61,194 bases of DNA, filler included, from 7 parts of 7 records of this genome joined end to end with filler, not necessarily neighbours in it; one strand, 5' to 3'. Positions 13,219-57,143 are shown, counted from the whole stretch's first letter. Notes: generated by a model not told the origin, from the sequence alone. Translations and numbers: made by a program.

Positions 13219-13318
13219 NNNNNNNNNNNNNNNNNNNNNNNNNNNNNNNNNNNNNNNNNNNNTTAATTAATTAANNNNNNNNNNNNNNNNNNNNNNNNNN
13301 NNNNNNNNNNNNNNNNNN
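13219..13318. other. Artificial contig linker N44-TTAATTAATTAA-N44 (also 26453-26552, 36347-36446, 46936-47035, 51670-51769, 56612-56711)
   Basis: Six identical 100-nt N-flanked all-frame-stop spacers; genes are truncated at them. Confidence 0.98.
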
Positions 13319-26452: not shown

Positions 26453-26552
26453 NNNNNNNNNNNNNNNNNNNNNNNNNNNNNNNNNNNNNNNNNNNNTTAA
26501 TTAATTAANNNNNNNNNNNNNNNNNNNNNNNNNNNNNNNNNNNNNNNNNNNN

Positions 26553-28396: not shown

Positions 28397-28469
28397 GCTC
28401 CGGCACGCCTCCAGAGGAGCTGCAGGGGAGCCTCGACGAGCAACGGACAAACACACCGGCGCGAGGATC

Positions 28470-30511
28470 ATGAGCAGCGAGGAGGCTGCGGCCGCAGAGC
28501 CGGAGGCGCCCGAGTCGGAGGAAGCGGCGGTGGAGCTCCCGACGTTCGAGCTGCCGATCCTGAGCACAATCAAGGCGGCCCAGCGGGCCAACGGGCTGCT
28601 CCACTCCGAGTACGAGCGCTACAGGTACCCGCCGCCGCCCCGCCCCGCCAACCGGCCGACAGGCACTACTGCACGCGCAAGGTGCAGCGGGTGCGCCGGT
28701 CGATCCGGTTCACGCACGGCCGCGGCCGCTTCCAGAAGAAGGAGATCACCCCCGAGGTGGTCAAGGACGAAAAGTGCGCCCCCGGGGGGTTCGACCGGCG
28801 AGCGGGCGGGCAGGTTCCTCTTGCTGCCTCTGTTCTACGCTGAGAGGGCCTGGGCCTACGCCCAGCAGTGCAAGCAGCAGATCTCCAACAGGATCGAGCG
28901 CGGACAGCCCGCCCAGCGCCGGCACTCGCTCACTCGGCTGCAGAAGGTTGGGCCTCCTCACTCGGTTGGCGAGCGAGCCACCGGCAGGCCTGGAAGTGGT
29001 CCGAGCAGCTCAAGGCGCTGTGCGAACAACGGGGCACCGGCACCACCGCCCTCGAGGCGCCCCGCCGATTGGGCGGCCGCCGAGCTCCTTGGCAGGCGGC
29101 TGCGTATGCCTCCTGGATGCAAGGAAACCTGCTGCTCGAGTGGTCCGCTCCCGGCCCGGCCAGCGGCCGAGCCAGGCGGGGCAGCGACAAGTGGCGCGAG
29201 GCCCAGGAGGCCTTTGTGCGGGCCCAGGGCATCTACGCTGAGCTGGCCAAGGTGAGCGGCGCGCGCGACAAGGAATTGTTTGACCGCCAGCTGGACGAGA
29301 TCGCGCCGGTCGTCCGGTTCTGTGAGCACGAGATCAAACTGCGGGCCGGGTCGGACACCACGGACGACGCGGCCGAGATCTTGGCCATGCAGAAGCTCGA
29401 GGGCATCGATGAGAACCTGCGGAAGCGGCTGGACTCTGTTGCGATGGCAGCCAACCTCAAGCAGGCCGAGGGCATCGACGCAGTCGAATTCGACGGGTCG
29501 GCCATCCCGATATCGAGCGAGCAGATCCGCGTGGCGCTGCTGGCGGTGCAGGAGGCTGCTCAGGAGTTGGGCGAGCTCGAGGAGTACGAGCTGATCATGG
29601 AAGGGTACGACAAGCTGCTCGGCGCGTACAATGAGATGTCCCACAAGATTCAGGCGGCCGGCCGGGGCTGGCCCGACTGAGCCGGCGCTGCAGGCCGAGA
29701 TCCGGGCGCTGGCCCCCAAGCAAGCCAAGGCCGAGGCTCAGATTGCTGACCTCCGCCAACTTGATAAGTACGTGAGTGCCAAGAAGCTGGAGCGGATCAT
29801 CGAGCGGAACGAGGCGATGGCGGCCAAGCTTAAGCAGGGGCTGGCCACCCGGGAGACCCGGCCGGACGATCTTGTGAGAGTCTACCACATGCTCGCTCAG
29901 AACGCCGAGGAGCTGGCTGGGCTGCACGACAAGGGCGCAAAGCTGCTAGAGGCGCGCGGCACAGAGTTCAGGGCCCACCGATGCGCCCACCTGGCCGGTA
30001 CCCGCCCCCGCGCCCTGCCCGGCCGAGCAGTGCGACAGGCAAGTGCCGAGTGGACCAGAAATTCCCTGAGGCGGTCGCGATGTATGACCGAGCGGATGGG
30101 CTGAGCCGGATGGCTATGGCGATGCTCCGAGAGTGCGAGGCCGACACCACCGAGCCGTGCCGCTCGCTCGAGGAGCTCCAGCACTGGATCAGAGGCGTCA
30201 AGTGCGCGGTGCAAGCCGAGGCGTTCCTGCAAGAGCACGGCGACCAGCCGGAGCGGAGCGCCGAGCAGGAGGCGCTCAAAGATGAGCCGCTGATGGACCG
30301 GCTGGACAAGTGGGTCACATTCGCGCCCGGGGACACGATCAAGATCCACGACTTCCCGCCCAAAGTGCGCCCGATCCCGTGCAAGCCTGTGATGTACGAC
30401 TTGGCGCTCAACTATATCAAGTTCCCGGACCTCAGCCACAGGCTGCCGGCCGAGAAGAGCCAGGGCATGCTCGGACGGGCCAAGAACCTGCTCGGTGGGC
30501 TCTGGGGATGA
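28470..30511 (+). CDS. SRP68: Signal recognition particle subunit SRP68, 7 introns
   Basis: Spliced: AQRANGLLHSEYERYRHYCTRKVQRVRR, AERAWAYA, TALEAAAYA, IAPVVRFC, FPPKVRPIPCKPVMYDLALNYIKFP, GGLWG. Introns at 28625-62, 28774-813, 28947-87, 29057-95 (GC), 29143-84, 29654-93 (GC), 29998-30038. Confidence 0.93.
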
Positions 30512-30947
30512 CCTCCGCCGCCGACCCCGGTGGTTTCGGACATTGAACGAGTCTCCCACTAGTGCGCTTGCACTGCTTGCAGTACCAACATTAATATTTC
30601 TGCGAGCTCCGATTGCAATTGTGTCCGATTGCATTCATGTTAGCATTTAGTTGGCATTCAAGCTTGTGTAAACTGTTCTATATGTTGTAATCGCGTATAG
30701 TCATTCAAACAGTATCACCTTTGAATCCGAAGCGAGCGGGACTAAGGATTAGAGCTGGACTAAGAGCATGTAAGAGCCGTCCGGACGGAGGCAAGGTCGA
30801 CATGAACGACAGTCAACGCCTGCGCAGGCTGTCTCAAGGAAATCAATAAAAAAATAAATCCCCAGGACACTTGAACAGACGGCTTGCACGCGCCATCGCC
30901 GGTGCCAGCGCGGCTTGCAGTGGCGGTTGATTGGCGGGGCGCAGGCC

Positions 30948-32729
30948 ATGACGGACTACCCGAGGATCCCGGCGCATCTCAATGTGTGCATGGAGAGCGA
31001 GGGCGAGCTCGGCGCCGTCTGCCCTTGGAAGGCCGGGCTGATGGGCAAGAGCCCGGCCGAGGGTGGCTGCCCGCACTTGCGGGAGGATCGGAGCGAGGAA
31101 CGCCGGCTGGGCAACAGCGTGGTCAAGCAGTCGATCCTGGACTGCGTCGGCAACACCCCGATGGTCCGGTGCGACCGGATCGCCGAGAAGGACGGGGTCA
31201 AGTGTAACTTGATGGCGAAGTGCGAGTTCATGAACCCCGGCGGGGCGGTCAAGGACCGTATCGGCCGGCGGATGCTGCTGGACGCCGAGCGGCGGGGCGA
31301 GTGGGACGGGCAGCCCTTCCACCCGGGGCACGTGATCATCGAGCCCACCTCCGGCAACACAGGGATCGGGCTGAGTATGAGCGCCGCGGTCCGCAAGTAC
31401 GATATGGTGATCACCATGCCGGAGAAGATGTCGCAGGAGAAGCAGGACGCGCTCAAGGGGCTCGGGGCCACCATCGTGCGCACCCCGACCGAGTATGCCT
31501 GGGACCACGAGGGCAGCCACATCAGTGAGGCCTACAAGCTCAGGGCGAGGCTCAACAAGAAGTACGCAGACGAGGGCACCCTGACCAAGGACGGGCACCC
31601 GATGAAGGCGCATGTGCTGGACCAGTACCGCAACCCGGGCAACGGAATGGCTCACTATGAGGAGACTGGCCAGGAGATCTTTGACCAGACCGGGGGCAAG
31701 ATCGACGTCCTCATAGCAGGCGCCGGAACTGGCGGCACCGTCACCGGGATTGCCCGGCGACTTAAGGAGCTCAAGCCGGAGGTCAAGATCGTGGCGGTGG
31801 ACCCGGATGGTTCGATCCTTGCCAAGGACAACTTTGCTGGCGAAGAGATTAACAAGAACAACCCGTCGGGGCCGTGGGGGCAGCAGACCGAGGGGATTGG
31901 GTACGACTTCATCCCGCGCGTGCTCGACAGGAACGTGGTGGACGAGTGGATGAAGGGCCCCGACAAAGAGAGCTTCGTTATGGCCCGCCGGCTGCTCAGA
32001 GAGGAAGGGTTTATGTGCGGCGGCTCATCCGGGACAGCGATGGACGCAGCAGTCAAGTACTGTCTGAAGAACGAGCTGGGCGAGGACCAGACGGTGGTGG
32101 TGCTGCTGCCGGACAACATCCGCAACTACATGACCAAGCACCTGAACGCGGACTGGATGTACGAGCGGGGGTATATGACTGAGAAGGAGTGTGCAGTGGC
32201 GTTCGCGCCTCAGCACATTGAGAACATGGACTGGGGGCAAGACATGACCGTGGCCGATCTCGACATGCACCCGGCCCAGTTCCTGCGCACTGACGAGACC
32301 TGCGAGAACGCGATCAATCTGATGCGGCAGATGGGTTTCGATCAGTTTCCTGTCAAAGATGAGTCCGGCAAGATCTATGGAGTGCTCACAGCCACAAATC
32401 TACTCACACGACTGGGCAAGCAACAGCTGGATCTGAAAGATCCGATCAAGCGCGCAGTGGTGCGCGACCTGCGCAAGGTGTCCAAGAGCGTTCCTCTGAA
32501 TGAGCTCGTGCGGATCCTTGGGCGCAACTCATTTGTGCTGATCGAGGAGAAATACTTTATCACTTTCACCGACGTTTTCGACAAGATGTACCCCAAGCCG
32601 CAGTGGATGGTCACCCAGGCCGAGTTCGAGAGGGGCCAGGCGGAGGCCAACCGCAACATGGTGGTGGCTGCCTCAATCACAGCCGCGGTCGCCTTTGTGG
32701 CCGGGGCAATCATGCGGAAATTTTGGTGA
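30948..32729 (+). CDS. CBS: Cystathionine beta-synthase (heme-type N-terminus, PLP core, CBS domains, hydrophobic tail); intronless
   Basis: VGNTPMV, AKCEFMNPGGAVKDRIG, IEPTSGNTGIG, GAGTGGT, EGIGYDFIP, GGSSGT, LLPDNIRNYMTK, FDQFPV; CPW..PH putative heme ligands. Confidence 0.95.
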   Translation: MTDYPRIPAHLNVCMESEGELGAVCPWKAGLMGKSPAEGGCPHLREDRSEERRLGNSVVKQSILDCVGNTPMVRCDRIAEKDGVKCNLMAKCEFMNPGGAVKDRIGRRMLLDAERRGEWDGQPFHPGHVIIEPTSGNTGIGLSMSAAVRKYDMVITMPEKMSQEKQDALKGLGATIVRTPTEYAWDHEGSHISEAYKLRARLNKKYADEGTLTKDGHPMKAHVLDQYRNPGNGMAHYEETGQEIFDQTGGKIDVLIAGAGTGGTVTGIARRLKELKPEVKIVAVDPDGSILAKDNFAGEEINKNNPSGPWGQQTEGIGYDFIPRVLDRNVVDEWMKGPDKESFVMARRLLREEGFMCGGSSGTAMDAAVKYCLKNELGEDQTVVVLLPDNIRNYMTKHLNADWMYERGYMTEKECAVAFAPQHIENMDWGQDMTVADLDMHPAQFLRTDETCENAINLMRQMGFDQFPVKDESGKIYGVLTATNLLTRLGKQQLDLKDPIKRAVVRDLRKVSKSVPLNELVRILGRNSFVLIEEKYFITFTDVFDKMYPKPQWMVTQAEFERGQAEANRNMVVAASITAAVAFVAGAIMRKFW

Positions 32730-32951: not shown

Positions 32952-33983
32952 CTACCAGATCTCTAACTTATCGTCTTGTGCTAACCCGAAGCTCTTTTTA
33001 TGCCGGGCGAACAGCTTTTGCAGCGCGGTCACATACTTTTGGTGGCCAGCCGCCACCTGCTCCTCCGTCGGGTGCGCGTTCTGCTCCAGCCGAATAGCCC
33101 GCCCGATCACTGTATGCAGCTTTGCCTCTCGCAGCGGGAATAGCCCGCAGAAGCCAAAGAAGAGGACAGTGGGAATGCCATAGCGATTGAGCCAGTGCCT
33201 AGTTGCCCAGCCGCCGCTTAGCGTATGGTAGCTTTCCACTTCGCCGAAAGTGTAAACAGGGTGCACACTGTACCCGTGTTGGATCGCGTACTTGATGAAT
33301 CCACACCGATTCTTCAGAAACACACGTTGCTTGCCCCACTGGCACAGCGAGGCCTCTTCGAAGCCGCCAGGGAGCAGCGCCAGCATCTCGCCGCGCTGCA
33401 TGTACCCGATGAACTCGCGCTTGGAGGCCTGTCCGAAGTTGCCCAGCCAGCGAAGCAGTAGCCCGAACAGGGGCATCTGGTAAAGCCCAGCCGCCACCAA
33501 GAACCGGATCGGTAGATCGGCCAGAGCTTCGCTGTGGACTCCGTTGAAGGAGAAGCCGCCGCACAGCACGCCGTGCGGGTGGAAGGAGAGCAGGGCCTTG
33601 CCCCGCGGCCTGGCGCCCTCCTCGATGTGCAGCTCGCACTCTCGGTACCAGCCGTACGGCCCGAGCTGCTTGATGAATCGGCCGAACGACGGCCAGGACC
33701 CGGCAAGCAGGTACTGGTAGGCCAGCAGCGCCACTAAACCGGTACTCAGCAGCGGCCAGCCCTGGTAGACGGCCCAGGGCAGCAGCGGGAGCAGCCCGAG
33801 CCCGCCCAGCCAGGGAGGGACCAGCATCAGATGGGCCAGCCAGCCGCCCAGCCGGGTGCCCTTGAGACCCTTCAGGCCGGTCCGACGGGCAAGATCCAGC
33901 GCCTGGACTAGCTCCCGGTGGGTCACGCCCACCCGCACCAGAAGAACCAGGCCCACACACGCCAGGCACGCTGCCGGTAACAT
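32952..33983 (-). CDS. Diacylglycerol/monoacylglycerol acyltransferase, DGAT2 family; apparently intronless
   Basis: FHPHG, LLPGGFEEA, GFIKYA..G..VHPVYTFGE, TVIGRAI; N-terminal TM segments. Confidence 0.9.
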   Translation of the reverse strand: MLPAACLACVGLVLLVRVGVTHRELVQALDLARRTGLKGLKGTRLGGWLAHLMLVPPWLGGLGLLPLLPWAVYQGWPLLSTGLVALLAYQYLLAGSWPSFGRFIKQLGPYGWYRECELHIEEGARPRGKALLSFHPHGVLCGGFSFNGVHSEALADLPIRFLVAAGLYQMPLFGLLLRWLGNFGQASKREFIGYMQRGEMLALLPGGFEEASLCQWGKQRVFLKNRCGFIKYAIQHGYSVHPVYTFGEVESYHTLSGGWATRHWLNRYGIPTVLFFGFCGLFPLREAKLHTVIGRAIRLEQNAHPTEEQVAAGHQKYVTALQKLFARHKKSFGLAQDDKLEIW

Positions 33984-34269
33984 CGCTGTGTCGCACTCGT
34001 TCGCTGAGATCCACAGTCTCAGAGAGTTTTCAACCGCACGGCCCCAAAAGCTCGTTGGCCTGCAACGCCTCATAGTTGTACATGTACCAGTACGTTGAAG
34101 GTCGACCGTTACCGGGTGCCGACGGTAGTGTATGTGAAGATAGTCTGATATATAATGCTCGCTCACCTGACATTTTGTTTAATATTAATTAAAAACCTCT
34201 AGCATTAATTTTATAAGCTCGTTTGCAGCATGATAATTGTGTCTATGGACTCGGGCTGCAACAATGCAT

Positions 34270-36346: not shown

Positions 36347-36781
36347 NNNNNNNNNNNNNNNNNNNNNNNNNNNNNNNNNNNNNNNNNNNNTTAATTAATT
36401 AANNNNNNNNNNNNNNNNNNNNNNNNNNNNNNNNNNNNNNNNNNNNGAGCGACGGTTCGACCGCCGGCACGAACAGGGTGAGCGATATGATGAAAGAATT
36501 GAAGAACCGGTATATGAACAGCCCAGCCGGCGGTTGATGCAGCGCTCGGAAGCGGCAGTGGCTCGCCAGGATAAACAGCAGGAAAAGCCAGAACACCGGC
36601 AATCCAGCCAGGAAAAAGCTCCGGCGCGCCTCGTCCATCTGGCCGGAATGTACTGTACGGGCTGATTGCCGTTGGACAACGGCCTCGGCTGCCAGGCGCA
36701 CAACTACCGCTGCTCGGTGTCGGGTCGACCTGTGCAAAAGCGCCGGTTGTGTCGGCGGATCCCGTTCGCTGAGGAGCCAAC

Positions 36782-39700
36782 ATGTGGCGGTCCGCGGTCA
36801 AGGGCGTGACGGTTATCGCCAAAGCCGCCTTCGGGGCCGAGCGGTCCCGCGGCCAGCTGGCGGCCCCTGAGCTCGCTGGGCAGCATGATCCGGGCCGCGC
36901 TGGAGCCCATCCTGCAAAAATACCTCCAGGGTTGCTCAGCCGCCCGGCCGATGGCCGAGCCGGCCGTTAGGCTTCTCCCCGGATAACCTCGTGGTGGACG
37001 ACCATGTGGTCACCCTCCGGAACTTCCAACTAGACGTCCCCCACCCCCTGGCCCGGCCCGAGCCGGGCGGCAGGAGAAGTTGCTATTCCGGCTGCTCCGG
37101 CTGCCGCTTCGGATCTCTCACTCCAACTGCGGCCAGCTCACCCTCAAGGTGCAGGCCAGTGGCCCGGTGAGCTCAGCTGTGCGGCAGATTGGCGGCCAGA
37201 ACCTGCAGGCTGCCTGGACCTCGGAGGCCACCGGGCTGACGGCAGCTGGCCGGTTAGCCGGGGGCGAGCGCGAGGCAGGTTCACGACATCACAGTGAAGG
37301 TGAGCTGCATTGACGAGGCGACCTGCCAGAGATGGTGCGCCGAGGAGGACCAAATCATGCAAGCCTCCCCGCCGGCCTCGCCCCCACCGCCGGCGCCGGA
37401 CAGCACGGACGCGGAGGATGCCGGTGCGCAGCTGCCTGGTTGGGGCACCAGCCTGTGGCCAGGGTTGTTTCACATCGCGGGTAACTTGAAGCAAGCATGC
37501 TTCGGATCGGCCGCCTCGATCGGCAAGCAATGGATTGCAATAGTGCTGCGCAACCTGGAGATCATGATCGATAACATCAACATACAGTCCGCCGCCCGCC
37601 CGCGTCGTTCAGTGCCACTGCAGGTGGGAACTGCCTGTGAGTTTGCCAGACCATGCGAACACCCAGCCGCTAGTAGCGCAAGTAATGCTCAAAGCGCTGC
37701 GCTGTCGGACCACCGACGAGCATAACAACCCTGTATTTGACTCCGGCACCACCGGCAAAGACCGGCTGGTGTATAAAGGCACCGAGGTATCCTTCACAGC
37801 CGCAAAGACGGGGCTGAGCACTCGGTCAGATCGAGGGATTATTACTCTACCTGGGCAGTCAGCCCCGGGAGAGCTCCCCGGGCAACTGCGGGCTGGTGGA
37901 GGTGTCGGCGAGCCAGCTGTGGGGCGTGGGCAAGCTGTTTGAGTGTATGGTTGACCTTAGAGACATTTATATCCCGAAACGGAGCCCGCGCCAGGCTGCT
38001 AGTCCGACCAGCCCTGAGACATCCGAGGCCGAGAAAGAAATGGAAAACCACCTTATGGATGGGCTGCCTCCGCTCAAGCTCGAGACACAGGCGCCGCGTG
38101 CGAGGGCCGGGGCCGAGCCGGGGCACAGGTGGAGTTTGTGAGGTGTCGACTGCTGAACGATGACCATCACGAGCTCGCTGTAGTGTCGATGGAGCAGATG
38201 CAGGCACGACAGGGCGCACGGATTGGGCGAGCCGGGCGCAGGTGCGGCTAGTGTCGGATCGGTTTGCCAAGTTTGAGTCGATCTTCACGTTGGATCAGCT
38301 TTATCTCAAGCAGGGACCTGCGCTGGTGCCGCCCGCTATCGGGCGCTGCAGAGCCACGGCAGGCCGACCCTGGCGGGATCTGGGTGGACACGCGCAACTG
38401 TATGATGACGCTGAGCAACCTGCCCGCCCAGTTTGCTACCGATGGCGTGGCGACTAAAGAGTTTAATTTCACTTTCCACACGCTGCACATCTTGTGGTTC
38501 CCTCTCACTGTTAGAGAACTGGTGCGGGGCTTGCAGCTGCGGCCGGCTCACCAGAGCGTAGGTCCGGATCGTCAATGTTGCCAAGGGCGTGGCAGACTGT
38601 GGTTATAAACCTCTAAACAAGGCCAAATCCAGGCTGACTGAGCAGCTCCGGCGGTCGATGGTCCGCGAGTCGAGTGCAGACATGCTCCCGGCGAGCCCAG
38701 AGCTGGTGGGCAGTGCGGCTGAGCTGCCAGACCTGCCTGTGCTCGAGGTGGGAAGCTGGTTGCCCGCTGTGACGGTGTCGACAGGTCAAGTATGAAGTTA
38801 CGCGTGCAATCTTCAAGTTCCGACTGATCAAGTCCGTTCAAATCACGCTGCACCAGGCAACTGTCCACTGATCGCCCGCTGACGGCTATCACAGGAGACG
38901 CTTGTCGACAGAGAGCTGGTCTCTGGCAAGCTTACAGTGACTCGACACGAGCTTGGGGCGGCGACTGTGACTGCCATGAACATCTGCGCGCTGATTACTC
39001 TGGGGAGATGCGATGTGATGGAGGCGCTGGGCGCGAGGGAGCAATGCACTGAGTTGGTCGAGACTGCTGTGGCGATGGAGTCGCAGCGAAAGCAGTACTG
39101 CGCCGAGAAGAGTACTCTGAGTGGGAAGCGGGGGCTGCTCACGGCGGAGTACGGGATGCTTGGCATGGGCACGTCGACAGTATATTACGTCAATTTGATG
39201 GGCTCGCTGGGCAACATGCAGGTCGAGTATCTCGGCCGGGGTGAGGTGCTGCAACTGATCGGGGTCCATGGCACCCCTGCTGAGTTTGAGGAATGGTCCG
39301 AGGATGGGCACTATGGTGCTAGCCACTTCCGGGCATTTGTGCACTCGATCGACATTGTCTATCTGCACTGGCCATTCTTCGAGCTGCTCCGGTGCAGATA
39401 GGACCAGCTGGCAGGGGTCACTGGCGGGATAGGTATGCAAACACGCAAGGCTTCTCGGACATTCTGGCTGAGAAGGAAAGCTCCAAGACGATGGAGCATG
39501 CGGGGACCACAAGCATGCTCAAGGGCGTGCTCGCTTCAGGTTATGCCTACGCTGCTTCGGCCGCTCAGAGCATCATTCACACCGCCACTGCCGATGCCGA
39601 GGGACTCCAGGTGCCTGGCACCATCCAGGCTGGGCTAGATGTGGCTGGCAGGCTGCACGGGCTCGTCGGATCGCCAAGAGGGACTTTAGTGTGCTAGTGC

Positions 39701-42700
39701 GGATCCACACTCCCGTTGTCACAGTCCCTGGCGAGTTTGCTGGCGCAGAGGCCAACCAATCGTCACCAGACAACTCGCCGCCTAGCCCAGCCGCTGGCTC
39801 GGGGCGTGGCGGGGTTAAATACGAGAGCCATGAGCGCTATGAAGTGTGTCCTGGCACAATCTCGGTGGACTTCGACTCGGGCAAGGCCATGCTGATCCGG
39901 CTAACCGATACTTCGATCCTGGCCTACCTGAGGGTTGTTGTGGAGGGCGCACCTAACGACAGGGTCTCTGTGGCGGTGCCAGAATTCATCACTTCGAGGT
40001 CTTCTCTTGTGTGCAACGACATCCTGCCAAGGTGCTCGCTGATGCTTGAGGTGGATCAAGGTCAGAACGAGACGGTCATCAATTTTGACCAGGTCTGCTG
40101 CTGCTGGCGCCGGTCTGATCACAAATTGACAGGAGGATAACAACTTCCAGGCGATTGTCACAAGATCGCGGGGCGGGCTCCTCCGTCGTGTGTTGCGGCA
40201 CCAGTTGCAGGTGCAGGCCCGCTCTAGGTCTGCTCGAGCGGTTGGCGTAAGGTGTGCTTGGGAGACATCGAGGTGGACCAGCAGCTGCTGGACAGCCCGA
40301 ACCGCGAGAGCAATCCCTCAGGCAAGCGTGATCCAGGGATGGCAAGGCAAACCCCTCCAAGCAAGCAAGACCAGCGCACGCCTCCGGGCAAGTCGCCAGC
40401 AGGAGCGGAGACAGCACGAACCATGCAGGCCTTGTTCATTGTGGCCCGCAGTGAGGCCAATATAACTGAATGGAACGTGGAAGTCGGCTCAGAGGTGCCA
40501 ACAGCCAGGCTGCCTGGGCAGCTCTGAAGTGGGAGGGCAGGTTCGGCTTATTAAGGAGGGCTATGTGCTCGAAAACATGCCAAACATCGCAATCAACGGC
40601 AAGAGATGGTGTGCATTTTCATATCTGCTTCAGGATGTGACTGTGGTGGGGCGTAGGTGCGAAGATGGCGCCCTTGAGATCTCGCTCTGTGTGCCAGTAG
40701 CTGCACTGCGCACAGCGATTCAGGCTAAGGGACGTACAAAATGGGGCATGTCTTTTGTTAGCCTGCCCTCACTAGCGCTGTCGAAGGAAAGGGATTCCCA
40801 GCTGCGGGAATCCTTTGCCAACCTGCCCATGTCGCCGCCACACTCAGGTGCATCAATGGCCGATCGGTCTTTCAATAACCTTACGTCACCTACATCTCCC
40901 AGTCCCCAACCAGCCCCTGATTCCGGGCATAAGCCAGCGCGTAAGTTTATAATCAAAGTGAAGAAGCCGCTGGTGTGCATTCTGCGGAGCCATGGCGAGC
41001 TGGACGCGGCCCAGTTCTCAGCAGATAGCTTGGATCGCGAGGAGCTAAATCAGTGGGACTTGAGTGTGGAGAACGACTTCTGCAAAATGACTGTGACGAA
41101 CCTGGAGATCGAGTACTGCGGGGGCACTGGCGAGGCGATCATGGACGGGGTGGTCCTGGAAGACATGCGTCCAGCCTCTCAGCGCCCGATGATCCCCGTG
41201 CCCCAGGATGTGAATAAACTGACTGAGGACACAATCCAGGCCATGCTGGTAAGCCCCCTGCCTGCCTGCCTAGTAGTCATCCTACACAGAGCAAAATAAT
41301 TGACCACAGACAACTTTAGCTAGCATTGATGCTTCGCACAGCAAATTAACTAGTTGCCACAAAACTCGTGGCACGAGCTAATTTGTGTGTAAATCGTCAG
41401 TGTGAGCTTAAAGACACCCCCAAGCTGCTGACTACCATGACGCATGTGCACAAAGGCCGACAGCTCAGCAACCGAGACAAGCTCAAGGTTGTGTTTAAGT
41501 CTAAGACAAACTCTGCGGATGACCCGTCAGTGCTTGTGCTGATTCCTGGGCTCAAGCTCGACTGGGATCATCACACTGTGGCAGCAATCCGTCACTTTCT
41601 CGAGGGATATCAAAAGGCGGTGCAAGAGGCTGCCAATCACGCCAATCTTGGACGCCGACAGGGCCGGCTGGTTGCATTCCGCGTGCAGGTCAGACATTTA
41701 GTACCCATGCGACTGATGAGTTCTGTACGCAGACTGGTGCAACCATGAGCTTCACAGGAAGCGGCGAGCGTCTTGTGATGGTGAGTTGACGATGTATGAC
41801 CAGCTTAGGTGTCTGCAGGTGAAAGCTGAGCGGTTCAAAGGAATTCAAGGGGCGAGCTATCGCTCCCCGTCGTCTATACTCGATGCGATGGAGCTTAAGG
41901 TCTGGAGCGGTGGGCACCAGCTCAAGACGCAGTGCTTGTTTGGGACTCTGTCCATCTTGCGGGCGCTGCCTAACGTCAACACGAACTTCCAGCTGCCAGG
42001 GAGCGGTGGCATGGTCAAAATGCTCGACACCGCACTGTTCCAGATCGAGGTCATAGTCACACAGCAGGCAGACGCGGCTCGCAGGCAGGAATACTCAAAG
42101 CAAGTGAGGATGGTGGCTGGAAACTGGGCTGAAGACCAGGCCACTAGCATGATCTACCATCACGACCTCTGGACAGACTTCACAGATTATTGTGCCGGCT
42201 ATGGTGTGCTAGGTGCCATGTTCCCAACACACGCTCGCCGTGCACACATGGCATGCAGCATGATCCGAAGGGGTGTCGAGGATTGGTGGGCACCACTTCG
42301 CAACTGCACCTGTGCCGAATTGTGGTACGTGGTCTGTGCAGCCCAGGAGCTGCGCAACAGGCGGCTCAGAGCCGAATTCCCACTCAAGTCGTGGGGAGAC
42401 ATGACCAGGCTCTACACCTCAGAGAATGTAGCGAACGCTGCAAATGAGGAGGTGGTACGGTTCCCTGAGTTGCAACAGCTGCGTGAGTACGAGCGCGAGC
42501 GGCGGCTCGAAGAGATCAACAACTCGTGGCACAAGCTGTGGCTCGTGAGCAAGTCACCCGACTGCAACCGGCGGAGCATGATTGCTGAGCTGGAACACTC
42601 CGGGCTGTGTGGTGTCCAGGTGCGTATCAGTTGGTTGGCGATGTGAGTGTGCGCAATGGCAGGTGGGCACTATGCTGCGACAGGCGGATAACCTGAGTGA

Positions 42701-45587
42701 AGTCAATCAAATGCTTGAGGCTGCAAACGTGTGCAGCAGGGAGCAGGGGGACCGCTTTACATCTCTGGAGATGCAACTCGCTCAACAGGTGCGCTGCGTA
42801 AGGATAGAGCTGATAGTTGGGCAGGTGCTGGTCGATTATACACGGGCATGCGGTACGACAATCGACGTGGCTTTCAAGGGGCCCACTGTGATGACATTGC
42901 CTACCTCTCGATCCCCGCAGAGGCCTCACCGTATTGAGATCAAGTTCATGGAAGGGCTGACTGTCCATGTGGACCGCGCCGTCTGCACTCGACCCAACGG
43001 CAAAGCCAGCGACACGTTCGATAAAATGGACGTCACAATGCTGCTTGGGGTAGCACGACACGCTACTAAAGATCTGGCCGTTTAGCGGTGTTTAATATGC
43101 GTGGCGACAGGTAGACCCTGAGATTGACTCCAAGTTTGGCCTAGAGATGCACGATCAAGTATCTTACAAGCCACCAGATAGCCTTCGCATGCCCCAGCTG
43201 GAAGTGGGGAGGCTTGGCAAGCCTTATGATTCGAAATGCTGGTACACTTTCTTGACACTCACCTGCAGCCAGGTGGCGGCGCGCCTTGCCGTGTCAGACT
43301 GAATGCCCGGTGCAGAGCTATAATGATGTTGTGTTTCGTTACTGGCAAGAGTCCACAAAAAACCATCTGCACATGTCTGTCAACGGCTACGTGCAGCTGG
43401 AAACCTGTCTGTCCAGCGGGGCTCGAGTAGAATTCGGGCGGATTTACGCCAACTTTGCTAAGGCCAACAACTGGCGGTGGTACCCCTGGAGTCACCAGTC
43501 ATCCGAACCAAATGAGCGAGATCAGCTACAGACCCGGCAAAGCATGGTGCTTGACCGGTCGCTGGATGTTCGATTCCAATCGCTGGAGGTGATCGAGGAC
43601 GACTCAGATAATTACAACGCAGTGTACGATGCTCGTGGGCAGCAATGCGACTCGGTGCTTGGTGCTGGTGGGGAAGTCAAGGATGTTGGCAACCCGAACT
43701 ATTACTTTGCCTCTGGGATGACGCGATTGCAGTGCGTGCTGGCCATGCTCTGCCCAAACGAGTGAATCGTGGGCTTGGCAGGCTAAACGTGACCAATATC
43801 TGGCCTACCCTGGGCCTTTTCAACCGGACATGTTCAGTGGCGCCATTCGATAGCTGCGGCTGGCTTCCTGAGGGCCATGATTCCGACTCATTGCGAACTT
43901 TCTGGCTGCTCGTATGGTACTTGCTCTCAGTCGACATGCTTGCTGGTGAGTACACAGCAGCTGGCTGGTGCTCATCCGGTGGCCTGGGGCAGTATGGTTA
44001 GCTGCAGGAGTTTACATCGCCTCCTTACTGGTCTGCCCTGAGAACGTATCCTGTTCAGGTCAAGTCAGGCCTAACCTGGTTCACTAGGTGAACGAGAGTC
44101 GCTGTCAGACCTTCGTGCCAACTCTGCAGGTGGCATGCCAGCACAGAGTATGGCTTGGCTGAGGACTTCGGGGCAGGGCATCGTGCATGCGCTGCTGTTG
44201 GTGATCTTCACACCCGTTCTAGGGCACTCTGTACACTCACGATGGTAATACGCTGCCCTTAACGATTAAGGTCTAATCAGTGTGCTATCAAGTATATGTA
44301 TTCCGTGGCTCGTGGCAGCAGCTGACGTGATTCTCAGGTCGCGGGCATATTCCGCTGTATCAGCCTGGTGTTGCTACTTGATGATCGTGATGACCCTAGA
44401 TGACGCATGGGCCACTCACTACAATGTCTCGATCCAAACCTCCGTCATTGCGGTTCTGCTAATCAATGTTTGGTGCACAATGGTTGTGCCCATCACTACT
44501 TGCTCAAGCTGGTCTCAAAGCTTCCAATTCTCCAGACTCGTCCGGATTGGTGTCAATACCAATCATGTCGAGAAGGTGCCCGTCAGAACTGACTGTAGAG
44601 CAACCAAAATGCAGTCACCTCGATAACAAATTTTACATTTCTGTGAGATTTGTCATCCAGGTTACTTCAATCTGGGCTATACTGATTGGGTTTCTTGGTG
44701 TTTTCCTCTTTACTGTCGGTATCACTGACGACCTTACCCTATGAGTACTCACCATGCCAACAGGGGCTGTGTACTACGACGAGGAGCGCAAGCTTAGTCT
44801 AGTCCAGAATGAAGATTACAGCGATAAGCACGATGTCTCCATCAAGTCTGTGTGCCAGCTCCTGTTGCTAGCCGGATCGACCAAGATCCTGATTTTGTTG
44901 GTGATTCGTTACCGGAACCAGTGCTGCCCTAAGAATCGGTTCCTCAAAGATGTGAATGAGGATGAGGCTCAAGCTGAGCTGCGGCGCTTGAAAGAGGAAG
45001 ACGACGAGGAGGTTGAAGCGGACGAGTTCGAGGAGTGACCAAGCCTGACAGGAGAGCCACTGACTGGTGGCTGCAGGCTGGACCAGGAGACCAAGGACAG
45101 TCTAGAAGTTTCTGACATGGTCAAGTTCAGGCTGGCACTGGGGGGGCTAGTGGTTGTTGACTTTTCAATCTGGATTGCAACTGGGATCACGCTGGGCAGC
45201 TTCGCCCCGGGCCCTGCAGCCGACTATGAGGTGCCCTCAAAGCGCACCGAGTCAGCTTACGGCTGAGGCGCTTGCAGGTATCATACCAGGTGCTTCGCAA
45301 CAGCGTAATTTTTGGCTGGGTGTCGGCCATTTGGGCACTTATCTTTTTATGCACCCTGTGGTAAGCCCTGACGCTGCGCTGTGGCTGTTTGATCGCTGCT
45401 GTCCTCAAGGTTTTACGAGAAGCGTGTGACCGCGCATCTTTTCGAGTTTGGAGCTGGTCTTAAGCAGTGGATGCAAGCCAAGCTGATCCGAAAATATTCC
45501 GCATATCCGCATGCGATGCACAGCACTGCAACGACGGGCACGACCCCTCTACTAGACGACGATGCGGTCTCATACGTGCCTATTTAA
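36782..45587 (+). CDS. Giant chorein-N (VPS13/ATG2/BLTP-like) protein with C-terminal multipass membrane domain, about 30+ introns
   Basis: Spliced N-terminus ILQKYLQGFSPDNL..VTLRNFQLDEKLL..LPLRI..CGQLTLKI; IAIVLRNLEIMIDNINI; LRCRTTDEHNNPVF..LVYKGTEIEGLLLYL; RBG-like VRIHTPVVTVP and LKLDWDHHTVAAIRHFL. About 8 hydrophobic helices after 43890; stop TAA 45585-45587. Confidence 0.72.
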
Positions 45588-45884
45588 TTCACCCATCACA
45601 TGGAATGACAATCAATTATCTGTCATACATGATTGTACAGTACGAGTAGTGAACCTCTAATTTAATAATTAATATCAGTTACATGACGGCTATTGTATGA
45701 TAGGGTCCAAATACGAAATCAGAACTACTAGATTGGTTGTGACCAATCGACTTATTTTAGTTACAGTGTATAGGTACTGTATATAGGTAGCTCGGTAACC
45801 GCGAGAGTATCACACTCACCCAACACCGAGTCTTCCTATCCTATGACGATGATACTAGTAGGCAACCCTCATGAGACTTGACAC

Positions 45885-46935
45885 TCAATCCATGTACGCC
45901 TTCTTTTCAGCAGGCGTTGCGCTATTCTGGAACTCCGCAAACAGAGTTTGAAAATCCTTGTATTTCATTTTGGCAAGTTTGTTCCCACTGGCGTTATTCA
46001 GTTTCCATTTTTTCGAAAAGCCATCACTGGCAACGTCCTTAATTTTGAGCAAAGCGTCCTTCATCGCAGCGCCTGGTGTAGGTACTTCCAATTGGAGATC
46101 CTCCATGGCTGCTGTCACATCTTTGGATTTGTTTGCTTCCTCCTTTTCAGCAGCTTCGGCAGCTGCCAAAGACACGTCAGCCGACTGAGCGTCACACATC
46201 ACGCACCTTCAGCCTCCGCCTTCTTGGCTGCAGCCGCTGCCTCCCGACGCTTCCTGACCTCTGCGAGCCGTGCCATATCTGCTTTCGCTTCGTCCTGCAC
46301 AGCCGCAGCTCAGCAACACAGCCTCCACCAGTGCCGCCACCGTCTCCCCTGCAGCGTGCTTCTTGGCGTAGGCCTGCTGGGCCCGGCGCTTCTCCAGCTC
46401 CTCCCTGGACAGACAGTGGTAAGCATCACAATCCCGGGCTAGCAGGGCACCTCTCGCGTCGGCTGAGCTCTGGCTTGCCTGCAGCGCTTAAGTCGAGGTC
46501 TTTCGCTTTGACACTAGAGACTTTGGTCTTGTTGACATTTCCGACGCCATCGAAGTCGATCAGATCGGCTACCCCTTTGGTCTTCTGGACCTTCTCCTCG
46601 ACTTCCTCCTCCTCATCGGACTCCTCATCCGCCTCCTCGGCTTTGTCAAAGAAGTCGTCGGAATCAGAATCCGACCCACCCTTCTTGCCGCCCTTTTTGT
46701 CGTCCTCATCGTCGGAGCCTCGCCCTGTAGACGCGACGGTCAGCCGCGCCCTCAGCCTCAGGGGCACGCACTGGCTTTCCGCTCCTGCTTTTTCTTATCC
46801 TCGAGGGCCTCTCGTTTGGCAATCTCCTCGGCGTTCTGAGCCTGGGGCAGACGCGAGTTCTTTCGCCGCCCCTTTCCCGACGGCATCCCGCCGCGCAGTC
46901 GTAGCACCAGGTGCAGGGTGGACTCCTTCTGGATG
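45885..46935 (-). CDS. PDAP1: Ubiquitin-PDAP1 (PP28/HASPP28) fusion, 5' truncated at linker
   Basis: Reverse strand reads IQKESTLHLVLRLRGG-MPSGKGRRK..NAEEI..; later KGVADLI, ELSRRER|EELEKRRAQQAY.K.HAAGET, AKADMARLAEVRKRREAAA, the PP28 domain pattern. Confidence 0.85.
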
Positions 46936-47228
46936 NNNNNNNNNNNNNNNNNNNNNNNNNNNNNNNNNNNNNNNNNNNNTTAATTAATTAANNNNNNNNN
47001 NNNNNNNNNNNNNNNNNNNNNNNNNNNNNNNNNNNCAAGACGCGCTCAGCGCAAGACACACGGGATATCACCGAAATTCTCTTTATATAAAACTAGATGG
47101 CCCGGTCTCGCCGGCGACACTCTTCCTTAGACTCTCCCTATATATTCAAAGAACTATCAGACTGGAGAGTAGGGTACAAGCAGAAACGCAGATTCGGCTG
47201 GCGGTTGGCTTTTTTCACATCATCTACG

Positions 47229-50200
47229 ATGCCAGGGTGTCTGGATCGGCGAGTGCGAGCGGTGGCGGTGATGGCGGTGATGGCGCTGGCGGCGATGGCA
47301 ATTCAAGAGGACGAGACTGTGTCGCTCGACAGCACCGATGACTACCCCGAGTATCACCTCGAAATGGAGCGCGGGCGTGGTGCCGCCCCCCCCGCCTGGC
47401 CGCCGCAATCGAGGGTGGGACCAGTCGAGGCGGTCGCAGCCCGGGTCAGACTGGGCGACGTGCTGAACGCTCGGACGGCCGCACGCGATGAGGCTGATAA
47501 CGCCGGCGAGCAACAGGCCGGCGCCCAAACGGCCCAGCCGAAGGGTGAGCCACCGCTCGCTGCGGGAGGAGGGAGCCGCCGGGCAGGGGTGGTGGCGGTG
47601 GACCCCATGGTTGACAGCATAGTGATGACTAGACTCCGCGGGGCCATTGATCAGATCCGGTCCGCAGCCGATGGGGCCATCGCCAAGACCGAGCGGCGGG
47701 CGCGAGCTTCCAAGCTGGCGGTACATCACGCGGTGGCGGCGGCCAAGCGCGATGCCGGAGCCAAGGCACTCGGCCGGGGCGGGGGTAGGGGGCGAACATC
47801 TGGGGGTAGGTGGCCAGCATTAGGCGATGGTCTGTTGAGCAGATCCGCGATGCCAAGGAACGAGTTGCTCAGGACAACATCGCTATCGAGGCTGAGTCAC
47901 AGCAGGAGCGGAGGATGGTAGAGGCCGGCGACAAGGAGACGCGGGATGGTATCGCCACGGTGGTCAAGGACGAGGCGGCTTGGGCTCGCACCGGGATAGA
48001 CGAGGCAAAGGTCGAGTCCGAACATCAAGCGAGGATAGGGTACGCCAGGATGATGATGATGCAGAAGCAGGAAAATGAAAGGATCGAGAAGCACAGGCGA
48101 CGGGAAGAAAAGGCACGGATGAAAGCGGCACAGGACGCGGTGCTGGCGGCGGTAAAGGAGGAGATCGTGCGGAACATGGAGATCGAGGACAGGATGGACC
48201 AACTCAAAGAGCAGGCTGAGCAGGAGCAGAAGGCCACCGCCAAGAAACTGGAGGCCGAGCGGGCAAAGGTGGCCGCGCTCGAGCGACGGGCGGACGAGGT
48301 TCGGAATAAGCAAGCCAACGCCGAGGCCAAGTCGAGAGAGAGCTCCACGAAGGCCCAGCGCCGCGCCGATGTTGCGATTGCACGGGCGCGCGAGAAATCG
48401 GCGGAGGACACCTCCAAGCAGCGCGCTAAGGAAGCCCGAGCCAAGGCGGTCCAACAGGACCGGTCCGAGCGCGAAGGCAAGGCCAAGGTGAAGGCGCTGA
48501 GCCTCTCATTTGCCGAGGAGCAAAGGATGCTCCAAGAGCTCGATGCAAGCATCGCTGCAGCCACCGCCACGCATGAGGCTCAAGCAAAGCAGGAGCACAC
48601 CGCGCGGATGGCTGCCGAGCAGGCTAATGAGGCAGCTAAGAAGTCAGCGCTTCAGGCTACGCTGCAGAGGGCCAGTGAGGAGCTTGCTGTGCTGCGCCAG
48701 GCTGAGGACACAATGAGACTGGACCAACCGCGCAGCACTGTGGATGGCCGTCCGTGTGTAACACCGTACTACTATCAGGGCGCCCAACATTCAGGATGTT
48801 TAGCTGATCCCAACTATTACGGTGCGCAGGGGCAAGGATGGTGTCCAGTTGGAGTGATTGGCAGCAAGTGCTTTGCCCAGGCCCCAACGCACAGTGAGCA
48901 GGGTAGCTGCACCGAATGGACCAAAGATGCCGCCGGCAATCCAACTGGGAAGTGGGCTGCTTGTGCACTTGGGCCTGTGCAGCACATGTTCTCTCAAGCT
49001 CCAGGCCGGCCAGTGGGCGCCTGTGGCCGTGAGGACGCGATAGTGAGCGCACCAGCCACCAGCAGCAGTCAGGCAGCTGCCGTGTGCTCGGGGATCCCAG
49101 CCTGTGTGAGCTACGCGTGGGATGCAACGTCACTGGTTGTACATGCGTGCGGTGTGGACACTGCAGGTCAGAACGGTGTAATCCAATCGCTGGAGCCAGT
49201 GAACGGATGGGAATCCGGCGACAAGCAAGGGGAGATGACCAAGGAGAAGATCGCCGAAGCGATAGGTCGTGCCAAAATCAAGGCCAACGATGCAGAGACG
49301 GCTCTGCTTGTTGCTCAGAGCGAGGCCAGCTTGCATGAGGACCAGGTCAATGCACAACTCGGAGACTCAGGTGCTGTGTCGGTGCCCGAGAAATTGTCTC
49401 AGAACCGGGAGGCACAGAAACAGAAGGTTCAGAAAGAGTTGTTCGAACTGAACCAAGCTGAGCAGCTAGAAGTTCGGGCAGAGCAGGCTGCAGCCGCTGC
49501 ATACGAGACTGAGAGAAAGGCTGAAGACGAGGCAGTGAAGGCGGCACACTTTCAGACTCAAGAACTTCAGCGGTCAGAGAAGCTAGTCTCCTCTGCTGAG
49601 GAAGAAGCAGAAAAAGACCAGGAGGCCCTGAATTCCATTGCAGAGGATTTGGTTGCCCTCGAAACTGAAAAGAAAGTGAGTAAGCATACTATCCAAGGCA
49701 CTAAAGCAGAGCTCAGCGATCAGAAACAGTTGGAAGCGCAGGAGAAGTCGGCTGCAAAGGAGGCCAAGAAAGTAGTCGAAAATGCAGAGGAGAAGCTTGT
49801 GCCCGAAGGAAGCTACGCACATGCAGTGACACTTGCTAAAGAGGCGCACAAGAAGCTTGAGCAGGCGGAGGGCAGAGAAAATTTAGCCAGGGCTGTTATG
49901 TTTGATAGCATGAGGGTCTTTGACAGGAAGCAGAGGGCAGCAAAGATGATGCAGCTCAAGCTGGGTGAGCTGAGGGATGCTGCAGAGAATGAGGCCGCCA
50001 ACGGAGAGGCCCCTCAGCTCGTAGATGTTGTGACTGTGGATCTAACTCTGAATGTTTCTGTTGAACGCATTGACAAGGGTTCAATAGAAGCTGGAGCAGC
50101 TAGCTTGGTCGGAGTTTTGCCAGATCAGATTTCTGTCATCAAGATGACTGGACTAGCCAAGCCAAAAAGCGAGGTGACCATCCAATTGGTAGATCCGCTT

Positions 50201-51669
50201 GATAGCGACCAAAGTCAATCATCAGCTTTCAGAGAAATCACAGCAGAGGTCTTCACTGGCAAGATTCTTGGTGACACCCAAGTTGCAGCATCCCGCTTTG
50301 TTAGTCGCAGGAAACAGCAGGTAGTTCCAGCAAAGCTAATTCATTGTTCGCTCACACTAGACACCCCAGCCTTTGCGCTAGACCGTACCCTAGTCAAGGA
50401 ACAAGCAGCAGGGATCTTGAGGATCCTTCCAAATCAGGTCTCCATTGTCAACGAGACAGCCGCCAATCCGAGCAACGACAAGTCAATCAAGCCAGCTCTG
50501 GTCAACCTGGAGCTAGTCGACAAGTCTGGGACAGATCCAAAAGAGACACCAGTACTGGAGCGACTGCAGGGTCAACCATTTGACGGCAGGGTTGTGGGGG
50601 GAGTCAAAGTTAAGAGCTTTGGTGAGCCTGTTGTGCAAAAGCGTGCTGTCTTACAAGCGCTTGATCCAAACTCCCCTCAAGCACAACTCGATAAATATGA
50701 GAACGAGGTTGAGACTGCTGTTGCCAAAATGAAGCAAACTGCAAGCCATTCTGAGCATGCAAAGGCTGAGTATGACCGCCGGACGTTGGACAGAAAGGTG
50801 GCAAGTGACGAGGCGAAGCGATTGGAGAGCAAGGCTGAGGATATATTAGAAGCTGAGAATGCGAAACAAGAAGCTGAGAAAGCTGCTATGCGAGAGGCAG
50901 CAGCAAACGCAGCAAAGATAGCAGTTGAAGCTCTTGATAAAGCCACACTCAAGTATCAACTTGGGAAAAGCCAGTTGAGTGAAGCGAAGCTGAGGTCTGA
51001 AGAGACACAGGATGAGGCCATCTTTGTAATGAAAGCATTTGAGCAGGATGACTCAGAGACTGCGGAAAGGGAAATCAAGGAAGACGCACTCGTTGAGCAA
51101 GTATCTGCCAAGTTGGAGTCAATGGATCTCAAGGAGACCCAGTGTAAGCTCGAGTCTCTGAAGATTAAGCATGAGCGGAAGCACATGCTTACTGTTCAGC
51201 TTGAGGTGAACCAGTGGGAGCAGCAGATGCATACCTACCAGCAGGCGCTGGCTACAAGCCACAGAAGCGTGGACAGCCAGAACAAGGACAGTTTGTATGA
51301 TGGCGTCTCGCTTGGAATATCTCAAGATAGTAATGTCCCAAGTGTCTCACTTCAGGCCCTAGCATATCAGGAGCTGCGAGACAAAATGAAGCAATCGAAT
51401 GACCTCTTCAGTGTAAACAGAAGATTGTTGCAGAGCAATGAGAGCAATGATGAATTAACGGTGTCACCCACTGCGTCTCTCACAAAAGAGCGGACTAAAC
51501 AGCCAACGAAACAGCCAACAGAGACTCCAACAAAAGAGCCAACGAATCAGCCAACTCAAGGTCCCACGACATTTCCAACACATGACCCAACTAAAGCGTC
51601 AACACTCACGCCAACTGAGCAACCTACAGGTGCTCCTAGCGCAGCTCCATCAGATGCTCCAAGCTCTGC
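47229..51669 (+). CDS. Large secreted/surface protein: signal peptide, coiled coils, fibronectin type II-like and Cys-rich modules, PT-repeat stalk (3' truncated)
   Basis: AVAVMAVMALAAMA signal; TVDGRPCVTPYYYQG..GC..WC (FN2-like); two similar beta-rich modules; PTKQPTETPTKEPT repeats; a few introns near the 5' end. Confidence 0.65.
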
Positions 51670-52021
51670 NNNNNNNNNNNNNNNNNNNNNNNNNNNNNNN
51701 NNNNNNNNNNNNNTTAATTAATTAANNNNNNNNNNNNNNNNNNNNNNNNNNNNNNNNNNNNNNNNNNNNGCTCCCGAAGCTCCTGCTCCCGAAGCTCCTC
51801 CGGTGGAGGGTGCTGCCGAAATGGCTGCTCCTGAGACTCCGTGAACACTATTTACTATACAAGTAACTTATAATTAATGCGAGTTACATTAAACAAGATT
51901 TATTTCAACCCGAGCCTATCTAAACGAGCAACTGTGTACACAATCATAAAGTCGTCACATAAATAATTGTAGACTACGTCACGTGGACTTGGAAAGCTCG
52001 CAAGCGTACGTAGTCAGAGTG

Positions 52022-56546: not shown

Positions 56547-57143
56547 TGCCCTCAAGAGCCGCCTCGGCGCCTTGTGGCCAACGTCCGTATGATTTTCGTT
56601 TATTGTATTACNNNNNNNNNNNNNNNNNNNNNNNNNNNNNNNNNNNNNNNNNNNNTTAATTAATTAANNNNNNNNNNNNNNNNNNNNNNNNNNNNNNNNN
56701 NNNNNNNNNNNCGATTCTTTTTAAAATTTATGTGCACATGCCCACTCAGCATCTTCTCTGACCGCCCTGGTCGGAGATCGGTCGTGCTGTTAGACCTCTG
56801 CCTTGGGGCTGCCGGCCTCCGCTGGTTTATGGGAATTTTCAATATGTCCCCCCCTCTCAGATGCAAGTATCCCCTATGATACCTTGAGTCAGTCAGTACA
56901 GATCTTCACTGAGTCAGTTGCAGAAAACCCCATGCAACTGCTGACCCGAATGGAGGATTGTATGTTTCAATGTGTACCCCTATGATTCTAAAACAAAGGT
57001 GTATTTAGTGAGTTGATTGGATGTAAGTATTGTAATTTTGAAAAAGTGTGCTCGTGAACTTGAAGCGGCAGAACGGTAGCGCTCACCCATCGGCCAGCGC
57101 AGTGAAGAATTAAATAACGGAAACCTTCGGCCTTGTGTCAGCG

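Follow-up and report, generated by a model that had tools for sequence, protein, structure and literature searches.

Can a single polypeptide combine a bridge-like lipid-transfer protein (BLTP) of the VPS13/ATG2 type with a multi-pass membrane domain of its own? This question is raised by a locus on the plus strand of one contig (36447-46935) within a window of 61,194 nucleotides, in which seven separate contigs stand end to end, so that features count as neighbours only within a contig; the true context of the bridge-like gene is this contig only. Our explanation, which we hold tentatively and with slightly less than even confidence, is that the product of one intron-dense gene of a flagellate protist (36885-45587) is a VPS13-like bridge protein anchored in a membrane, which would plausibly make it a new BLTP variant. 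Two parts of this answer are firm. In the rear ~1,380 residues (~60% of the protein), a soluble region of ~950 residues is fused to a domain of ~8 helices in two organisms, and the front half is coding, with conservation shown for its exon 38895-39391. The front and rear halves probably belong to one gene.

The initial annotation of this DNA had described a continuous spliced frame, and such a frame can indeed be walked from the ATG at 36885-36887 to the stop at 45585-45587. The model comprises 34 exons and 2,309 residues with a single terminal stop (~2,301 residues with the better-supported donor at 41249). Of the extent that was first proposed, 36782-45587, the stop holds but the start does not, as 36782 lies in another frame and the first in-frame ATG is 36885, with a same-frame stop upstream at 36807-36809. 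The intron density is extreme, about one per 200-250 nt over 36885-45587. The introns measure 36-152 nt (mostly 36-61 nt) and are of the GT..AG type, with donors that are mostly GTG or GTA, acceptors that are mostly CAG|G, and no pyrimidine tract; three long introns (41249-41400, 44245-44337, and 44582-44660) are AT-richer.

The rear half: a soluble region fused to a membrane domain

The rear half could be defined by homology. A search with the 308-residue open frame 41720-42646 across 1,306 candidates gave a single match to a longer protein (P0001, E 2.2e-111), which is an uninterrupted open reading frame (ORF) of 1428 residues (4,287 nt) on a 4363-nt contig, leaving at most 76 nt outside the ORF, and which forms a singleton cluster. 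By tblastn, P0001 is colinear with 40429-45548 of the window in alternating frames. Rear-half junctions were sought as GT/GC..AG pairs junction by junction and then by a homology-guided exon chain against P0001. This chain is colinear over 40423-45548 with 19 introns and 54.8% identity in 1,373 columns, the alignment being significant only from about residue 75 of P0001 (window position 40423). Exact joins include ..GLCGVQ|VGTMLRQAD.., ..SVDMLA|VWLAAGVYIASLLVCPEN.., and ..TIQAML|CELKD... The junctions at 41200-41450, 43700-44000, and 44220-44590, about which the initial annotation had been in doubt, are resolved by the colinearity with the uninterrupted relative. The resulting features, all on the plus strand, are the following:

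40541-40608, 40657-41248 (or to 41272), 41401-41688, 41733-41780, and 41819-42619, plus strand: first group of soluble exons, colinear with P0001
42663-42788, 42825-43049, 43111-43272, and 43316-43731, plus strand: second group of soluble exons, colinear with P0001
43782-43945, 43993-44045, 44088-44129, 44177-44244, and 44338-44581, plus strand: first group of membrane-domain exons, by homology to P0001
44661-44718, 44764-45034, 45077-45230, and 45278-45360, plus strand: second group of membrane-domain exons, by homology to P0001
45410-45587, plus strand: terminal exon with the TAA stop (45585-45587), P0001 ending at the equivalent position
45588-45750, plus strand: AT-rich 3' region past the stop (GC 0.29-0.36), the sole such stretch on the contig

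The soluble rear region (40541-43731) shares 53-62% identity with P0001 per block, and 41819-42619 is the best-conserved block. It matched no family in Pfam, PDB, or the ESM Atlas. The exons from 43782 to 45360 encode an acidic loop in addition to about eight helices. Within residues 1909-2253 of the model, seven hydrophobic segments have a Kyte-Doolittle mean of at least 1.5 over 19 residues; one of the seven extends over 37 residues, and a weaker eighth segment is interspersed. The estimate of about eight helices in the initial annotation thus stands, and three of the helices that it quoted (IWAILIGFLGVFLFTVG, LALGGLVVVDFSIWIATGI, and VIFGWVSAIWALIFLCTLW) are exact, whereas the join in the first one had to be changed to the spliced form ..SVDMLA|VWLAAGVYIASLLV... 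Residues 1-1900, on the other hand, hold no segment at this threshold (maximum 19-residue hydropathy 1.38), and no N-terminal transmembrane helix or signal-like segment was detected by hydropathy. The membrane domain is 58% identical to that of P0001 (197/338 aligned residues), with the segments equally placed in both proteins. Both also keep an Asp within the first and the seventh segments (..DMLA.. and ..DF..W) and a GHS.H motif. Because P0001 is colinear across the passage from the soluble to the hydrophobic part and the segments keep their positions, the fusion of a soluble region to a membrane domain is real for the rear ~1,380 residues.

The family is rare: one long relative is known together with six fragments in three clusters. 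When relatives of P0001 with a length of 785-2499 residues were sought, only P0001 itself was found among 7,171 candidates, and neither JGI metagenome contigs nor GTDB genome contigs held further relatives. P0001 matched no Pfam family at E<=10 and nothing in the ESM Atlas, and its single PDB match (CaBP4, E = 1) is at chance level. The rear-half family is small and conserved, and it is known solely from environmental or transcript data. By itself, it represents an unannotated conserved protein of ~1,400 residues with a domain of ~8 helices.

The front half and its junction to the rear half

Front-half exons (36885-40092) were derived by ab initio splice dynamic programming (DP) at two settings. 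They are the following:

36885-36930, plus strand: exon 1 with the start codon, MIRAALEPILQKYLQ plus the first base of a Gly codon, chosen by both DP settings; putatively the N-terminal helix of a chorein-like cap
36971-37035, plus strand: exon 2, (G)FSPDNLVVDDHVVTLRNFQLD, preceded by a 40-nt GT..AG intron
37074-37166, plus strand: exon 3, EKLLFRLLRLPLRISHSNCGQLTLKVQASGP, preceded by a 38-nt intron
37279-37586, plus strand: exon 4, VHDITVKVSCIDEA.., a Pro-rich loop, and ..KQWIAIVLRNLEIMIDNINI, fitting the model with a single terminal stop
37624-37786, plus strand: exon 5, (Q)WELPVSLPDHANTQPLVAQVMLKALRCRTTDEHNNPV.., from splice DP
37863-38835, plus strand: middle exons 37863-38097, 38204-38325, 38363-38521, 38562-38747, and 38785-38835, ab initio only and with approximate boundaries
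38895-39391, plus strand: conserved exon of 165 codons, shared with environmental relatives
39433-39610, plus strand: exon after a 41-nt intron, with the join ..FFELLR|YANTQG..
39652-40092, plus strand: last large front-half exon, ending in ..NFDQ at a CAG|GT donor, from splice DP and codon bias

Exons 1-3 and the start of exon 4 (37279) are identical in both DP settings, with introns of 40, 38, and 112 nt. The internal structure of exon 4 is less certain, as the DP sometimes divides it and the frame is open over 37258-37725. Codon bias is frame-specific in the middle exons, in exon 5 (log-odds 0.097 in frame vs -0.27 and -0.40 out of frame), and in exon 39652-40092 (0.086 vs -0.25 and -0.31). 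Exon 38895-39391 is supported by homology: when 1.84 billion cluster representatives were searched exhaustively, three fragments matched (E 8e-16 to 1.8e-13), and one of the matched clusters holds three further members, giving six fragments (P0002-P0007) in three clusters. Their tblastn identity to exons 38895-39391 and 39433-39610 is 58-69%, and four of them (P0003, P0005, P0006, and P0007) are contiguous (..FFE.LR|YANTQG..) where the window has the intron between 39391 and 39433. No longer homologue of ORF 39472-40140 was found among 1,870 candidates, and the ESM Atlas gave no usable match for 38895-39389. These fragments show the coding nature of the front half; the remaining exons, as drawn from splice signals and codon bias, should be taken as approximate.

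How, then, are the two halves connected? The link would run through two short introns:

40093-40251, plus strand: proposed link of an intron 40093-40132 (40 nt), an exon 40133-40210 (26 codons), and an intron 40211-40251 (41 nt)
40252-40494, plus strand: linker exon with ATG 40340 and ATG 40423, possible starts of a separate rear gene, and with the conserved block from 40423

Both link introns have CAG|GT donors, their acceptors are ACAG|G and TAAG|G, and their lengths equal the commonest intron size on the contig; the second acceptor, after the 41-nt intron, lands in the frame of the exon that P0001 supports. The in-frame codon-score excess of exon 40133-40210 is 0.295, a value that 2.8% of non-coding windows reach. 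The linker stretch upstream of 40423 has a weak coding bias (delta 0.142). The rival explanation that comes closest, although we regard it as rather unlikely, is that two tandem genes are present: one for a chorein-like soluble protein of ~890 residues (36885 to the stop at 40140) and one for a multi-pass protein of ~1,380-1,410 residues beginning at ATG 40423 or 40340, which may cooperate in the manner of VPS13 with XK. Several observations speak for such a division and weigh against a single gene. The conservation with P0001 begins exactly at a shared Met (ATG 40423, M75 of P0001), as expected of a separate start, and the preceding 74 residues of P0001 are not significantly similar to the window linker (p = 0.41 against shuffles). 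P0001 itself begins with Met on its short contig. Left unspliced, the frame of exon 39652-40092 ends at a stop at 40138-40140, and no homologue spanning the 40092-40423 boundary was found in the protein searches run. The genome is furthermore compact, with ~300 nt from the stop of the bridge-like gene to the 3' end of a convergent PP28-like gene and ~245 nt from ATG 36885 to a possible divergent ORF that has no Pfam support. Moreover, front-half exon boundaries are approximate because the splice DP recovers just 10-11 of the 16 homology-supported rear-half introns, although the same data served to train it.

Against two separate genes stand the base composition and coding character of the junction. 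Its GC is exon-like (0.55-0.68), and it lacks any AT-rich stretch resembling a 3' untranslated region such as the one that follows the stop at 45587. The codon bias is specific to exactly those frames which splicing of the 40- and 41-nt introns would bring together: the 83 linker codons show an in-frame excess of 0.19, which 1.9% of non-coding windows reach, while 10% of coding windows lie at or below it. In two diverged organisms the frame stays open ahead of the conserved Met, for 65 codons in the window and for 74 in P0001, and the confirmed rear half contains other disordered loops that are conserved no better than the linker. A single gene in which the front and rear halves are joined through the 40- and 41-nt introns therefore remains the probable arrangement. 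With respect to the single chain that the initial annotation had proposed, the rear soluble region and the helices do share one frame, as demonstrated by P0001, but the join to the front half is proposed from splice signals, codon bias, and the missing AT-rich gene end. A 60-nt candidate intron at 40392-40451 was rejected, as P0001 aligns across it.

Comparison with known bridge-like proteins

The spliced protein begins with MIRAALEPILQKYLQGFSPDNLVVDDHVVTLRNFQLDEKLLFRLLRLPLRISHSNCGQLTLKVQASGPVHDITVKV.. and continues further on with ..IAIVLRNLEIMIDNINIQWELPV..PLVAQVMLKALRCRTTDE... From Met1 onwards, its motifs (..L.KYLQ.., V.LRN.QL, LPLRI...G.LTLKV, and ..NL.I.I.NI.I.WE..) follow what we take to be the order of the VPS13/ATG2 cap, a likeness at the level of motifs. 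This likeness covers several consecutive motifs in the presumed order and reaches ~170 residues into the protein. The chorein-N start claimed by the initial annotation accordingly survives as a resemblance at the motif level, a lead rather than a test result, whereas a Pfam or PDB match for single exons did not materialize.

These negative results, together with the structure predictions, weigh against a bridge protein. In Pfam, no chorein or VPS13_N match was obtained with single exons and ORF pieces (10, 3, and 6 pieces), exons 2, 3, and 5 gave no family when searched singly (exon 2 at E<=10) and exon 4 no relevant one, and three single front-half exons (3, 4, and 5) had no match in PDB. The single-exon Pfam negatives have little power because PF12624 (Chorein_N / VPS13_N) in the Pfam copy used is a model of 1317 positions with an 80-bit cut-off. 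PF12624 was also sought in control genomes as a source of reference VPS13 loci and was found in 0/14. The helical moment of exon 1 (0.40 vs a shuffle mean of 0.26) is reached by 14% of shuffles and is not significant. The initial annotation had further read beta-rich repeats into the soluble body, a claim that was not borne out. An AlphaFold model of exon 41819-42619, with P0001 as the sole other row of the alignment, had a predicted local distance difference test (pLDDT) score of 39.3 and showed few strands followed mostly by helices. Alternating hydrophobic 7-mers were not in excess over locally shuffled sequence (front half, z 0.3; rear half, z -1.7; P0001, z -1.1), but this is a crude count without a positive control and speaks neither for nor against a beta-groove. 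Similarly, the AlphaFold model of the membrane part of P0001 contains long helices by DSSP, but with a pLDDT of 46.7 and a predicted template modelling (pTM) score of 0.30; both models are of low confidence. A long open beta-groove of repeated units may be proposed for the soluble body. Matches of exons to Astro_p19 and PEX11 were at chance level (E 0.15-0.19) and were disregarded.

That the locus is one gene for something other than a BLTP, namely a lineage-restricted multi-pass membrane protein (for instance a transporter, channel, or receptor) whose cytosolic N-terminal region is very large and whose motifs resemble the chorein cap by chance, is distinctly unlikely: it would agree with a rare family, with Pfam, PDB, and the Atlas matching nothing for any part searched, with no excess of alternating hydrophobic residues, with a conserved core that is modelled, at low confidence, as largely helical, and with VAB, ATG2_C, and PH undetected in P0001, but the negatives come from single exons or shallow alignments and hence have little power, and several consecutive motifs stand in what we take to be the right order from residue 1 to ~170.

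Seen as a membrane-anchored bridge protein, the product resembles VPS13, ATG2, and BLTP3 in the presumed arrangement of its N-terminus, in which a helix from Met1 is followed by LRN.QL and by LPLRI...G.LTLKV-type strands and later by NL.I.I.NI.I.WE. It further resembles them in having no N-terminal transmembrane helix and in the great length of its soluble body. It differs from these proteins in that single-exon searches gave no significant profile match. As the initial annotation had stated, the tail of canonical VPS13 is not seen here: VAB, ATG2_C, and PH were undetected by Pfam both in P0001 (0 families at E<=10) and in the rear-half exons of the window. With ~2,300 residues, the protein is also shorter than a typical VPS13.

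The most pronounced difference concerns the membrane. VPS13, ATG2, and BLTP3 are peripheral proteins that attach to partners in the membrane, whereas the present protein carries ~8 C-terminal helices; in the full-text literature searched, partners such as XK and ATG9 are described as separate proteins. For the repeating beta-groove (RBG) proteins, it is stated that all of them begin with a chorein-N homologue, which occupies the very start of the chain and has an amphipathic helix first, and that Hobbit and Tweek start with endoplasmic reticulum (ER) transmembrane helices (Levine 2022, PMC7613979). For VPS13Y of Archaeplastida, an N-terminal helix is predicted in the article text (PMC10683392). 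The locus is thus like BLTP1 (Tweek/Csf1), BLTP2 (Hobbit/Fmp27), and plant VPS13Y in that the bridge protein itself would be integrated into a membrane, but in the same texts their anchor is a single N-terminal ER helix, unlike the C-terminal multi-pass domain found here. The label "TM" in the text on Plasmodium VPS13L1 is applied to transfer proteins of the shuttle type and to candidate partners, not to the bridge protein (PMC13036008). Within the same full-text scope, N-terminal single helices only were encountered, and a C-terminal multi-pass domain was described for none of the bridge proteins, in line with the initial annotation, which knew of no described equivalent.

With the partners XK/XKR, ATG9, TMEM41B/VMP1, Any1, and Mcp1, the protein shares a multi-pass domain where the far end of the bridge would meet the bilayer, and the conserved acidic residues inside its helices can be counted as a likeness to scramblase partners. 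The domain differs from those partners in that its sequence resembles neither a Pfam family nor a PDB chain; specifically, no match to XK/XKR, ATG9, VTT/DedA-type TMEM41B/VMP1, or TMEM16 was obtained in Pfam, or in PDB with P0001. It is conceivable that the membrane domain acts as a scramblase.

For the protein as a whole, the following function may be proposed. The chorein-like cap, which has no transmembrane helix, would dock peripherally on the donor membrane, and the soluble body of ~1,900 residues would reach across the gap as the carrier of lipids. The domain of ~8 C-terminal helices would be embedded in the partner membrane and hold the exit of the bridge in place, and it might also let delivered lipids equilibrate between the leaflets. 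In its fullest form, which we hold with more hesitation than the membrane-anchored bridge protein as such, the proposal is that a single chain consists of a chorein-capped bridge and its own multi-pass domain and takes on by itself the task that two proteins share in VPS13-XK or ATG2-ATG9, in a small, lineage-restricted family (the protist and environmental relatives) with a membrane fold that is new to Pfam and PDB.

How lipids that reach the end of a bridge are distributed over the two leaflets of the acceptor membrane has yet to be settled, and current models use separate scramblase partners. If the fusion is true, nature would have set both the geometry and the stoichiometry of the bridge relative to its membrane module in one chain; the locus would point to a new family of membrane domains for assays of scrambling or insertion, and the fused protein would be tractable for structure work. 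If, instead, two genes are present, their being adjacent would make them a new candidate pair of partners.

Contig context and neighbouring genes

The DNA of the window has a GC content of about 60%, and its contigs are separated by six spacers, each N44-TTAATTAATTAA-N44 (13219-13318, 26453-26552, 36347-36446, 46936-47035, 51670-51769, and 56612-56711). The gene content of the other contigs points to a flagellate eukaryote as the source:

14214-16829, minus strand: CC2D2A N-terminal C2 domain, other contig
27065-28843, plus strand: SRP68, other contig
30858-32729, plus strand: PALP+CBS enzyme, cystathionine beta-synthase-like, other contig
32952-34178, minus strand: DGAT, other contig
3687-5678, minus strand: GHL15 glycosyl hydrolase-like ORF, other contig

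CC2D2A is a protein of the ciliary transition zone.

On the contig of the bridge-like gene, an open frame on the minus strand lies within 36447-36797, has its start near 36640 (MDEARRSFFLAGLPVFWLFLLFIL..), is hydrophobic, and runs off the contig start; it had no Pfam match, and the distance of ~245 nt given above applies if it is a divergent neighbour. Downstream, a convergent gene on the minus strand (45885-46794) is split by introns, and within it ORF 46209-46487 weakly matches PP28, a casein kinase substrate phosphoprotein (E 3.7e-4); the score of 21 bits falls short of the 25-bit Pfam cut-off. On another contig, a stop-free frame of 1,303 codons (47810-51721, plus strand) reaches the contig end. 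Its sole Pfam match is the PT disordered repeat (E 3.6e-9) and its AT skew is strongly positive (0.31), and it probably encodes a long low-complexity protein.

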